From Escherichia coli (GTDB lineage: Bacteria > Pseudomonadota > Gammaproteobacteria > Enterobacterales > Enterobacteriaceae): DNA of 57,965 nt. A program made the position numbers. Each line of letters starts with the position of its first letter. The stretch's first letter is position 1. Shown here piece after piece: positions 3,001 through 9,000 of the stretch. The DNA lies in the NCBI RefSeq assembly GCF_003334765.1, contig NZ_QOWT01000026.1, one strand, 5' to 3'.

Positions 3001-6000
3001 ATCGCACTTCTCAAAGTCTTCCAGCAACACGGTCCCTTTACCTACACCGATACTCGCTGCCAAACCCACGCTTGTCGGTTCATGGCACATGTTGGAGCAG
3101 TCGGGAAAGTTATTGCTCCCGTATTCACGGGCAAAAAGCTGATAAAGAAAGGCAGCTTCATTGGAAGTGCGGCCCGAAGTATAGAATTCAACCTGATTGG
3201 GATCACTATAGCTTTGAAGGCGTGCGCCAATTTCGTCGAAAGCTTGTTGCCAGCTTAATGGCTTGTAACAGTCGCTGACGGCATCATATTTCAAAGGCTG
3301 AGTGAGTCGCCCCGCAGCCTCAAGCTCGTGGTCTCCCCAGGTAAGTAATGATTGAACCGTATTCTCAGCAAAGAAAGAGGCGTTTACCTGCTTATCCGTG
3401 ACTTCCCAGGCGATTGCTTTTGCGCCGTTTTCACAAATGTCGAATGACGCACTGTGCTTAGGATCTGGCCATGCACAACCCGGACAGTCAAAGCCCTCTG
3501 GCTTATTCATGTCAAACATGGCAATAACATCCTGGCGTATATCCATCTGCTTACGTACTGCATTCGCTACGGATTTAACAGCACCCCAACCACCTGCAGC
3601 ACCCTGGTAGGATTCAATTTTTTTCTTCATCTACTTATCCTGTGTGGAAATGAATTATTAGGATTTGTAATAGCGATGATGCACAGTACATACAAAGGGA
3701 TTATCGCCAACATGGATATATAAGAGTAGGGGACTACTCTCTTTCTATTTTTAATCTATTATCGTTAAACAATAGATTAAATACGATAAGTTAAGCATCA
3801 TCTCTCATAGTGTTTAAATTAACATATTTTTCAATATAAAAAATAAGACTCTGGCTTCAATTGTGCGCGGATTTTCTTACAGGTGTAGGCTAATAGCCTT
3901 CACAAAATAATTATCCGCGCAATTTTCGTGAATGGAGCGCATAGACTAAGGTCAAAATCACAATTATTCATAGATAAAAGTGACACCAATGACTGACTGG
4001 ACGGTTCCGGCTGAAACCTTGTTTCCTGTTTGTCCATAGGTTGCGCTTAAACCCAGAGGTACTTTGCTTTTATTTACTGTCCCCAGGGAGACATTTTCTC
4101 CCGTAGCCAGTATTTTTCCATTACGCATTAGAGTGACACCCACTCCCGATGCTTTTGTTGCATCAGGTGCTGTGTTAGCAAACACTTGTCGGCTACTGTC
4201 AGTGGTGGCACCCGAAAGATAAAATGAGAGCTTTTGTTCGCTTGAGCAATATACGCCAAGGGGTATTTCTGCGCTTCCAGGAAAGTCCGGGAGATCCACG
4301 GTGACATTACGACTATCAACGGTGCAGCCGCCTGTTGGCATAACAACATTGTTATTTGAAATAATATTCCACGTAAAATTACGCGGATTTCCGCTTCCTA
4401 ATGTTGCAATTTTATACATATGAATACGGGCAATGACTTCCCCCGCTTTTATGACAACTCCACCGGCCGCCCCAACTGGGGTAATATAGAGTTTTAACGG
4501 TAATGGCATCGGTGTCTTATCACCAATATCCAATACGTTGGTATTTGTCGTCAACGGGAAGGGGTAGGTCACATTATTCCAGTACAGCGATCCTTTATAT
4601 GACTGTAGGGAGCCTGCGAAAGCTGAGCCTTGTACCAGGTTTATATGATCAGTGTCGTACCAGCCGCCGTAATCATTCCAGCAACTTATATGCTGAGACA
4701 AGTCTACAACCAGATTCTGGCCCGGCTGTATTACAGGGTCGAGATTAACATAAACAGAGGTTGTACCTGCTCCAATACTTGACCCGCCATCGACATTACA
4801 ACTGAAGGCAAAAACTTTGCCTGCCATTAATAGAAGATAAATACCGAACAGGACCTTTATACTGATTGTTTTACCCATGATATATCCTAAGGTTAAAAAT
4901 TGATTTAAAAAGAAGGCTAAGAAAATCGAATCGACGTTATTGCCAGGTGTAGATCACATTGATTAGCGCCTCGATCGTTCCCTGGCTTGCGTTTCCATTC
5001 ACCGTGATAGCTCTTGCCTTAAGTGGAAACTGTGCATTACGAGTGATCTCATCAACAATAACCGTTTTGCTATCGCCATTTTTTAACGCAGCATCCTGGT
5101 CATCCCTCAGCTCTATCTGAATATTTTCGGCAGTACCTTCATTTTTGTAATAACCCGTATTGTCAGTTGAACCTGTCACGATTGCCGTCACTGCACTTGT
5201 TTCAACCGGACAATCGGTTAATGACAAAGTAATATTGTGCCAGCCAGATGCAGAACCAGGTTGTTGCAGATTGCGCGTATAAAGATCCCCGAGATTAACG
5301 TTAGCTTCTTTGGTTTGAATAGTGCAGGGTTTAGCGACTACCCGACCATTAACAGTGATAGTGACATCGGCGGCCTGGAGAGTTGCTGTGAATAACGCGC
5401 AAAACGTAGCTAACAGGAACCTCTTGTGAAGTCTTTTCATATCTGACTCTGATTATTGAAATTCAAGGGTAAAGGTTGCCGAAGCCCTCACCAGTCCCGG
5501 ATTGACGGACTTCTGAGTTGACTTCAGACGAGCGGAGTAAGGCAAAATATTGTTCTGTTCTGGTACCAGTGGGATCCACTGCATCCCGGCATGAAGATCA
5601 TTCAGTTTCACCGGACGCATATTTGCGTCCAATATTTCTATACCCAAACCGGAGGCCGTATTGCTTCCTTCATCCAGTTTCAACAAAGTATTATTTTCTG
5701 CATCCTCAATACCGTTAAATGCAACCCGAACCCCCGTTGTCCCTTTGCTGCATTCACTTAACGTAATCTGAAAAGGGACGGCTGGACTTGTGCTACCGGT
5801 CGTTGGAAATTGTCTGGCACTGTTTTTTTGGAGATCTACGGTAAAATTAAGCGAATCCGATGAGACTGTGCAGCCATAATCGAGGACGCGCCCGCTAATT
5901 TTAATAACGCTATCTGCGGATAAAGCAGAATAGGTGGTTAACCCCAGACATAAACCGAGGAAAATAATGTTATTGTATTTCATAATCTATTGTTCCTTAG

Positions 6001-9000
6001 CGACAGATTGCTGTCTGCTGGTTCAGTAAGGTACCAGGAGAAACTTCAGGAAGCTTGTACTCGACAATACAGTTTGAGTTTTTATCTTTGCCCCATGAAA
6101 CCTGTAATTGCCCTGACTGTGGAAGTCCAGTCAGATAAACCTGACCATTTTCCGCGACAATGCTGCCATTTTTATTCTCTCCGTGTGTGACAATTGCACC
6201 GAATGGAACGCTCTTATTACCGTACTTCAACGTCATTAATACTTTCCCGCCGATTTGTGCATTAAATGTTGCTCTGGCAATAGCACTGTGAGTTGGGATG
6301 ACAGTGACCACGGTTTCATCCAGTTCAACATTATCTGCAAGGGAATTCGCGTTAAGAGCAACACGGTTTTCTCTATATTCTGTCGCAAATGGTAATATGG
6401 CATAGCCACGCCAGTCGGTATGAATTCCGGTCTGGTTCTCTATTTTGACATTATCAGCACCAGGAGCCTTAACCAGAACCATTGTGTCGCCCAGCGGCTG
6501 TCCAAAGGTGATGCCATCAGCATGAGCAATAATCCCACCACTCATTCCGTAATAAATCTGGCTGCTGTCACCACTCCGACTGTAACCGACATTAGTATTA
6601 CCATAAGCTCCACGATAATTAAGAGAACTGTAACCACTGGTGCCAGACGATGTATTACCTCCGTGGGTGTTACCGACCTGAACGCTATAATTCAGGTTAT
6701 TATCCGGCAGCAGAGTGCCATAAACCCCCGATAGATTGGTCATGCCGCCTTTCAAATCGTTTGACATACTGTAACTGGCGTTTGAATTACGAAATGCCGA
6801 CTGACTGTCTGTACGCATCCAATGACTGAAGGGAACATTAAGCGTAAAAGCGAGTAAATGATCCCGATCGTTTTGCCATATATTATTGGAATAGCTGTAA
6901 TTCAGCGAAGTCGTAATATCACCAAACGGCACATTTAATCCAAATGATATTTGCTGGTCGCTGCGTGACGTGTTCCAGTAACTTTGGCGACTGGCACTGA
7001 AAAATGTCGTACCGTAATTTCCAAGCTGCTGAGAGATGCTTATTTGTTCCTGACCACGCTTACTGTAGAACAGATTAAAATAATCAATAAATTGTGTCTG
7101 CTCATTGGTGTCTCCGGTAGGAGGCTTGACGGTGTAACCACTCATTCGACTGTAGGCACTGTCGGATAAGTTATAAAAACCTTGCGTAGAATAGCGATAT
7201 CCTGCGACCTGGATATTGGTTCCACAACAAGTTTATTGCTGCACTTGTTGAAGAGAGTATTTGCAAAAACATTTTATGTCGCTAAATAACATGACGATTT
7301 CATTATGCATGTTATTTATAAACCGTGACTAAACAGAATATTATTGCGAACAAGGGAAGTGTCAGGAAAGGTCAAGAGCTACCAATGGTTAATATGGCTA
7401 TAAATCATTAGCTATGGTTAATGTTTGCTTGCTGAAACTAACACCGAATTGCTCTAAACAGATAAGTGCAGGGTTTATTAAAGCTGTCCGACAGACTTTC
7501 TTAACCTGGTAATATCTCTCTTGGGTGACTCTCCAAACATCCGCGAATATTCCCGACTGAAATGGGATAGCTTTCGTAACCGACAGCATAGGCTGCTGTG
7601 GTGACATCGTAATGTTCATTCAGCATCTGTCGCCTGACTTCATTGAGACGTAGCCATTTCTGATACCGGAGTGGACTCATTCCCGCTTGATCCGTCCTTA
7701 AATAAGTAACAGCACCCTCTGGTGTTTTCGTATGCAGTGTCTATGCGACAGACACTGCGCTCTTAGCATGGGGCAGGGAATAACCAGGCTATTTCTCCAT
7801 GCACAGGCCAATTATGAAAGAGGAGAGGCTTAAGTTCTTGAACCCTGAACGAATAACGACTACCAGAAAAGCACTTCGCATCACTCAGACATGATTTAAC
7901 ATAATATACATTATGCGCACCAATATAAACCAAGGAAGAATCCAGTCGTTGGCGGTCATGATTGTCATGCTCATTAACAATGACCAAACCCCATATCTCA
8001 CTTACTACCGTATTCTCGGCTTAACCGTCCATGCAACCTCAACACATTGCTTTCAACTGCCGTCACCACGTTCTCCGGAAAATCTGTCGGTAATGAAGTC
8101 TTCACGTTATCCAGTGCTGCTGGAATCATTCTGGCAAAGTCACTCAGGATTTCATGCATCTGCACTTCCGGGAATCTCAGCACCTTTGCTGTCGCCAAAA
8201 AATGTCGCGGATAAATTTTATCGATTGCCGTTTTTTTGCCTTTGGATGCGTTAAGCCCCATTGCCAGTTTGAGATCGCTGATGTGTATTCCCGTACCGCC
8301 AAGGACCGGAAATGCTGAAATGATGTCGTAAAATGGCGTGAGTCGATAACTGCCGCCAGCCTGAATAAATACGGAGAAGTTTTTTGCATGACCGTCCGTT
8401 GCGCCAATCAACCACTGGAAGACCTGGAATTTCATAAAATCATAGCGATCTTTCAGCGCCTCGCTGGACCCCATCAAAAAAGCCATGATCCGCGCGATGC
8501 CTGGGCCTCCATCTGATTCATATTTCACCGATGAAGGTAAACCGAATGTCTGACACATATCCTCCTGTGGCAAGCGAAGTAAAACCGTTCGCTCAGCATT
8601 CCAACGCCTGTCAAAACGTTCGACCGCTAACGCGCGCACATTTCCCGCTTTAATGATTTCTGCGTCCGGAACATTCAACCCAAGTTCTTTCGCCAGCAGC
8701 AGACAGTAATACTCATTATCAACGCTTTGGCTGAGATCGAGCGTCGCATTGGGCTGCCTGATTTCGCCAATCGGTAATTTAATGATGTGCGTCGTCGGCG
8801 TTATTCCTTTCGGAATGCACCAGTCATTGCCTATTCTGAGCAGTGCTGTCTTCTCCTGTGCGCCAGCAACCGAGATGCGAAAGTCATTTTCTTCTCTAAT
8901 CATGCCTAGCGGGATATCTGCTTTATAAGCCGTTAATACTTCTTCAAGTCTGGCTTCAGTAAGCTTTTCCCATGCCATTATCGGATGCGTTACGGTTTCG

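Follow-up and report, generated by a model that had tools for sequence, protein, structure and literature searches.

What is left of a chaperone-usher fimbrial operon once its usher gene has lost its beginning, and can the subunit genes that remain still serve any purpose? The question is raised by a locus on contig NZ_QOWT01000026.1 of Escherichia coli (assembly GCF_003334765.1), of which a stretch of 57,965 nucleotides, hereafter the window, was analysed. On its minus strand an usher frame (ydeT') is followed by three pilin-like genes, ydeS, ydeR and the FimH-like ydeQ, all three of which are intact open reading frames (ORFs). An initial annotation had described the cluster as a remnant that lacks the chaperone, the major subunit and the N-terminal part of the usher, and that cannot build fimbriae by itself. 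Our comparisons agree with that description, and identify the locus, with a probability of about 0.88, as the K-12-type allele of the F9 (Fml/Yde) gamma-1 chaperone-usher fimbrial operon. Every component needed for pilus assembly is missing from it: the chaperone, a complete usher and the rod subunit.

The assignment to F9 starts from position and gene order. The first 16 kb of the window read, on the minus strand, ydeO-safA-ydeP-ydeQ-ydeR-ydeS-ydeT'-yneL-hipA-hipB followed by a large autotransporter gene, so that the cluster lies between hipBA and ydeP, in the order also seen in annotated records. Compared with the F9/Fml/Yde fimbriae of CFT073 (c1931-c1936) and of enterohaemorrhagic E. coli (EHEC) O157, whose adhesin is FmlH, the window shares the locus, the promoter sequence, the C-terminus of the usher, and YdeS, YdeR and YdeQ, but lacks 177 bp of leader, the genes of the major subunit and the chaperone, and usher codons 1-475. 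Since nothing but the pair of minor subunits, the adhesin and codons 476-883 of the usher has been kept, the locus is a disrupted allele and not a complete member of the family. The MG1655-type region differs from the window by 2 mismatches in 5,801 bp, and RefSeq annotates in it a ydeT that is 'incomplete; missing N-terminus' together with a frameshifted helix-turn-helix (HTH) pseudogene. Of the two differing bases, that at 6287 makes codon 313 in the usher remnant Ser in the window but Gly in MG1655, and that at 4309 is synonymous, in the Arg190 codon of ydeQ. The best match of the window locus is HSP425, a Brazilian isolate from human urine, with 100% identity.

The extent of the loss was established by a megablast comparison of the locus with 5,426 complete E. 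coli genomes, most of which match only from 7223 downstream, and by alignment with intact operons, the check that the initial annotation had proposed. Three undeleted references were used: L003, a uropathogenic strain of serotype O6:K2:H1, and L006 and L007, both of which carry the K-12-type yneL segment. All three encode the major subunit, the chaperone, an usher of 883 aa, ydeS, ydeR and ydeQ, and exactly the parts that had been claimed as absent are those that the window lacks. Window positions 9400-7223 are collinear with L006 7001-9177 (98.9% identity), and positions 7223-3600 with L006 12456-16079 (99.8% identity, 8 mismatches in 3,624 bp). The missing interval is thus L006 9178-12455, or 3,278 bp; relative to L003 it is 3721-7000, or 3,280 bp. 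With it went the terminal 177 bp of the leader, the genes for the major subunit and the chaperone, and nucleotides 1-1425 of the usher gene, that is, codons 1-475. Neither a periplasmic PapD-like chaperone gene nor a major (rod) subunit gene is found in the cluster. Relocation of the missing parts was also considered and rejected: in tblastn searches the whole 58-kb window gave no match to the major subunit or the chaperone of F9, or to the N-terminal 475 aa of the usher. As chaperone, full usher and major subunit are not encoded here, the locus is not self-sufficient for building an F9 fimbria.

The junction lies at 7223/7224, where the sequence reads ...AAACTTGTTGTG|GAACCAATATCC..., only 9 bp outside the interval 7232-7500 in which the endpoint had first been placed. 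The two parental sites have a single G in common; no k-mer of 6 bp or more is shared near the two breakpoints, and no insertion sequence (IS) remnant is present there. These three observations rule out an IS- or repeat-mediated deletion, and from them we infer a simple deletion by illegitimate recombination.

What the deletion left of the usher is the pseudogene ydeT' (5997-7223, minus strand), which begins at usher nucleotide 1426 in phase 0 and whose 408 codons correspond to F9 usher codons 476-883. Its frame, read from 7223 to 5997, matches NCBIfam PRK15193 only at positions 470-877 of 877 (E=1.5e-136), and among Pfam domains only positions 259-549 of 549 of Usher, plus PapC_C, which bears out the earlier view that only a C-terminal part survives. 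The part present is of F9 type, with 99.5% amino-acid identity over 408 residues to the usher of L006 and 402 of 408 residues identical to that of the O6:K2:H1 (CFT073-like) strain. It comprises the C-terminal part of the barrel and the C-terminal domains; signal peptide, N-terminal domain and plug are absent, and the barrel is incomplete, so that this is not a full-length usher. The frame had been said to have no start codon. There is indeed no native start, and a TAA stop (7235-7233) stands three codons 5' of the first usher-derived codon, but the next possible initiation codon (ATG, GTG or TTG) in this frame, the ATG at 7145, opens an ORF of 382 aa. This ATG is the internal Met502 of the usher, and direct reading of the sequence reveals no Shine-Dalgarno motif 5' of it. 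Because it would lack the signal peptide and most of the barrel, a product initiated at Met502 would be non-functional.

Could the truncation be an assembly or sequencing artefact, or a lesion confined to laboratory strains? It is carried by K-12 laboratory strains, and nothing else speaks in favour of this explanation. With a 241-bp probe centred on the junction, a contiguous match at 99.2% identity or more was found in 1,374 of the 5,426 complete genomes (~25%), from humans, dogs, pigs, poultry, wildlife and water. In genomes without the contiguous junction the two halves of the probe map apart, overlapping only at the junction base (query base 121). The window itself is not MG1655, as the two single-nucleotide differences, the closest match to a urine isolate and an intact neighbouring autotransporter gene attest. 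An artefact or a laboratory lesion is refuted by this distribution, and we give it practically no credence; the same junction in so many genomes means that the allele is common to a whole lineage.

The remaining genes encode the tip of the fimbria. Gene ydeS (5453-5983, minus strand, 176 aa), preceded by an AAGGAA ribosome-binding site, encodes a FimF-like adaptor subunit that scores 239.7 bits against NCBIfam FimF (cut-off 200) and matches FimF in PDB with E=3.9e-39. Next to it, ydeR (4937-5440, minus strand, 167 aa) encodes a FimG-like minor tip subunit (256 bits against NCBIfam FimG, cut-off 220; PDB FimG, E=6.5e-60). The product of ydeQ (3964-4878, minus strand, 304 aa), with a signal peptide, a lectin domain and a pilin domain, corresponds to the F9/Fml tip adhesin FmlH: residues 25-184 are identical at 159 of 160 positions to the FmlH lectin domain of PDB 6AOW (ten related entries were also matched), and YdeQ is on this ground predicted to possess the lectin domain that binds Gal-beta-1,3 glycans. 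The reported identity of FmlH to FimH is 41%, and its ligands are Gal-beta-1,3 glycans, not mannose. Over its full length YdeQ aligns to FimH with E=1e-81, and its pilin domain aligns to that of FimH with E=1.6e-37.

The order ydeS-ydeR-ydeQ and the roles of the products (adaptor, linker and two-domain lectin adhesin) parallel those of the type 1 genes fimF-fimG-fimH, but the two sets are paralogues, not orthologues, and occupy different loci. Because the F9 paralogues exceed the FimF and FimG equivalog cut-offs of NCBIfam, naming is inconsistent for the proteins of window positions 4937-5983 and at loci L004, L005 and L008. One and the same RefSeq protein pair, WP_000876763.1 and WP_000825452.1, appears under the names ydeS and ydeR in part of the records, and elsewhere as type 1 subunits under the names 'fimF' and 'fimG'. 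The latter labels, given by PGAP, are misleading, and such inconsistent naming carries a risk of false type 1 fimbria calls.

The three tip proteins have changed little. Identities to the O6:K2:H1 orthologues are 173/176 for YdeS, 164/167 for YdeR and 295/304 for YdeQ (9 residues differ), and all three proteins are identical between the window and E. coli B, which does not have this deletion. Codon differences of the remnant number 0-4 per gene relative to the undeleted L006, and none in ydeSRQ relative to E. coli B. This is what recency of the deletion explains, and it provides no evidence for or against selection: a test of selection on ydeSRQ after the deletion, with 0-4 codon differences per gene to the closest undeleted relatives, has too few changes for any power. 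That the three genes are intact would thus be owed chiefly to the short time since the deletion, measured against sequence divergence.

Whether the remnant is transcribed bears on whether these genes matter. The f9 promoter of CFT073 has been characterized by Wurpel et al. (2014, PMC3966885), who mapped the transcription start site (TSS) by 5' RACE to a G located 251 nt 5' of the ATG of the major subunit gene, behind a -10 element CATAAT and a -35 element TAGTCG with an 18-bp spacer, and who also demonstrated H-NS binding and expression at 20 C. These elements fall at 3612-3648 in L003. By alignment transfer, their homologues in the window are a -35 hexamer TAGTCA at 7331-7326 and a -10 hexamer CATAAT at 7307-7302, with the same 18-bp spacer (promoter homologue at 7302-7331, minus strand), and a G at 7295. 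A putative sigma-70 promoter with its start site is therefore retained at 7331-7295, with one base of the -35 element changed. Of the leader of the f9 mRNA, the initial 72 nt, which run from the TSS homologue to the junction (7224-7295, minus strand), are kept as well, and the deletion fuses leader position +72/+73 to usher codon 476. Both features belong to a native upstream segment (7224-7457, minus strand) that is 93.6% identical to L003 3487-3720. The initial annotation had seen upstream of the cluster only an AraC-type HTH fragment (yneL) before hipA; that fragment is confirmed, but the upstream region also holds the promoter homologue and the leader.

Transcripts have been seen in K-12. 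In MG1655, ydeS mRNA is induced by BolA overexpression (PMC4337573), and ydeS showed the top fold change among genes between glucose and glycerol or acetate (PMC7968713). These two transcriptome studies argue that the remnant is transcribed at least conditionally, and they partly answer, from the literature, the proposal that transcription of ydeQRS be checked. A literature search for direct evidence on the TSS, on H-NS or on Rho at the K-12 remnant yielded indirect transcriptome mentions only. Genomic SELEX (systematic evolution of ligands by exponential enrichment) peaks reported near ydeQ/ydeR and ydeS/hipA could not be reliably mapped to window coordinates and were not used. Transcription of ydeSRQ would be low, H-NS-repressed and condition-dependent, and would come from the kept promoter, internal promoters or both. 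It may start at 7295, and some share may survive past the ~1.3 kb of untranslated usher fragment, over which Rho-dependent polarity probably lowers it further.

Several points weigh against this account of a silenced but transcribable remnant. A consensus scan lists the f9 promoter site with 9 of 12 matches, but promoter-like matches in the region number 11 against 10.2 in shuffled sequence; because this total is at chance level, the promoter is called solely by homology. In the K-12 context the promoter is a predicted one, and its -35 hexamer is one base off the mapped TAGTCG. The deletion took the downstream leader with predicted H-NS sites (+89 and part of the surroundings). Polarity by Rho is our inference alone, and the substitutions relative to undeleted relatives are too few to separate neutrality from purifying selection on ydeSRQ.

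If transcripts are made, might the orphan tip module still work? On this explanation YdeS, YdeR and YdeQ would be expressed from the kept f9 promoter, for instance at low temperature or upon relief from H-NS, chaperoned and exported by the paralogous type 1 proteins FimC/FimD, and mounted as tips specific for Gal-beta-1,3 on the type 1 rods of phylogroup A strains. The promoter and TSS homologues are retained, the three ORFs are intact, the lectin domain is all but identical to that of functional FmlH, the scores of YdeS and YdeR exceed the FimF and FimG cut-offs, the pilin domain of YdeQ is FimH-like, and ydeS transcripts respond to BolA and carbon source. Moreover, full-length FmlH has been expressed in a K-12 strain with inactivated fimH and a fim cluster, where the activating substitution V33E or F63E gave galactose-inhibitable binding (PMC8064603), which indicates that FimCD can display FmlH. 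However, wild-type FmlH in the same type 1 background gave no detectable binding, and that experiment relied on plasmid expression and not on the native remnant (PMC8064603). There is no evidence of post-deletion selection on ydeSRQ, and an untranslated usher fragment of this length would be expected to promote early termination of transcription. Decay has also continued: some K-12-type genomes (H5, H38, H39) carry IS2 or IS1 insertions or a larger deletion, and a ydeT copy interrupted by IS2 swept through a long-term stationary-phase culture. We consider a working tip module very unlikely. If it did exist, a quarter of E. coli could show a galactoside-binding FmlH tip on type 1 rods without an F9 assembly system.

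At least four independent f9 disruption alleles can be distinguished: K-12-type, E. coli B, O103:H2 and O145:H28. The f9 cluster of E. coli B (BL21/REL606-type) resembles the window in belonging to phylogroup A and in being non-functional, but its lesions are independent of the deletion described here. In E. coli B (L004 2982-7227), a deletion runs from inside yneL into the major subunit gene, which is 5'-truncated, the chaperone gene contains an internal stop, and the usher gene has a 1-bp deletion at codon 117 that shifts the frame and a CAG-to-TAG stop at codon 480, where the window keeps CAG. In an O103:H2 strain, a 656-bp deletion affects the major subunit gene and an IS3 element lies in ydeR, and in an O145:H28 strain the promoter and the major subunit gene have been replaced, leaving it without both. 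In the survey by Wurpel et al. (2014, PMC3966885), f9 was disrupted in 17 of 42 genomes and in every genome of phylogroup A that was examined; K-12 MG1655, DH10B, BW2952 and the B strains were among those scored as 'disrupted'.

Such recurrence leads us to ask whether loss of F9 has been positively selected, because cells that express it pay a cost or become a target for phage, immune attack or other antagonists in the niches of phylogroup A and of some EHEC lineages. The independent disruption alleles always lie at the major subunit or promoter end, and the published survey found all phylogroup A strains affected. MG1655 has 12 chaperone-usher operons, and deletion mutants of all of them, that of ydeQRST included, are reported to grow better than the wild type; ydeQRST is also counted among these 12 loci in another paper. 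Yet relaxed selection on a cryptic, H-NS-silenced operon predicts recurrent loss equally well, the evidence assembled here consists of recurring lesions, and no cost-driven sweep would need to spare the three genes that are intact in the K-12 allele. Positive selection for loss strikes us as improbable, though less so than a functional tip module.

Upstream of the f9 segment, yneL (7478-7686, minus strand) is a frameshifted C-terminal fragment of an AraC-family gene, of ~67 codons, within a variable segment of 436 bp (7458-7893). With the frameshift corrected it matches Pfam HTH_18 at positions 22-76 of 80 (E=6e-16), and also HTH_AraC. It does not amount to a complete AraC/XylS regulator, with a C-terminal domain of ~100 aa containing two HTH motifs and an N-terminal domain in one frame, and RefSeq likewise marks it as frameshifted and missing the N-terminus. 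No full-length yneL regulator is evident among the 30 matches listed out of 4,341 genomes with a match, where names are generic helix-turn-helix ones (two rows being unrelated). Every allele type that was examined carries an annotation as frameshifted and incomplete; H103, one of the rows listed, has the name 'helix-turn-helix transcriptional regulator' and was not inspected. The K-12-type yneL segment occurs at 99% identity or more in 3,061 genomes, against 1,374 with the junction, which argues that the pre-deletion architecture is common and formed the background in which the deletion occurred.

A replacement polymorphism occupies the space between hipA and the f9 upstream region. Where the window has its 436 bp with the yneL fragment, the O6:K2:H1 strain has 2.5 kb (L003 998-3486) with three genes, for an acetylxylan esterase, a truncated LysR regulator and a short-chain dehydrogenase/reductase (SDR) oxidoreductase. 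O157 and O145-type strains carry a yneL-like allele that is only ~80% identical. A variable f9 5' region with putative regulators has been described (Wurpel et al. 2014, PMC3966885).

The history of the locus may be reconstructed as follows. The ancestral order, which many E. coli still have, was probably hipBA, the yneL fragment, the f9 promoter, then the genes of the major subunit, chaperone and usher, and ydeS, ydeR and ydeQ. A single illegitimate recombination at 1 bp of microhomology would then have removed ~3.28 kb, from leader position +73 through usher codon 475, taking with it the genes for major subunit and chaperone and, from the usher, its signal peptide, N-terminal domain and plug together with the beginning of the barrel. 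The locus now consists of the native promoter with 72 nt of leader, joined to a C-terminal usher fragment that cannot be translated, and behind it three intact tip-subunit genes. It would be a recent remnant of a cryptic operon silenced by H-NS, one that has become fixed in its lineage, and would be unable to assemble F9 fimbriae; in this background the products YdeS, YdeR and YdeQ most likely do nothing that is specific to F9.

The observation holds but is not new: annotations of K-12 routinely show ydeT and yneL as truncated pseudogenes, and a paper of 2014 had already described f9 as disrupted in phylogroup A. Added here are the exact breakpoint and its microhomology, the retention of the promoter, the prevalence of the allele and its independence of other lesions. 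Little is at stake overall, yet K-12 still encodes an essentially wild-type FmlH adhesin that can be displayed in trans by the type 1 machinery, and a description at base level may help FmlH researchers and those who use K-12 as a 'fimbria-free' host.

Two observations concern the neighbourhood of the cluster. Beside hipB, the ECSE_1600-family autotransporter gene (yneO/ydeK/ydeU in K-12; 9809-15229, minus strand) is an intact ORF of 1806 aa in the window and in HSP425, and is annotated as frameshifted in MG1655, 2013C-3181 and JCKP02. Between ydeQ and ydeP, a nested inverted repeat seen by eye (3870-3930, minus strand) has the form GCGCGGAT...ATCCGCGC around AGGCT-ATT-AGCCT, and may be a terminator or an element resembling repetitive extragenic palindromic (REP) sequences.

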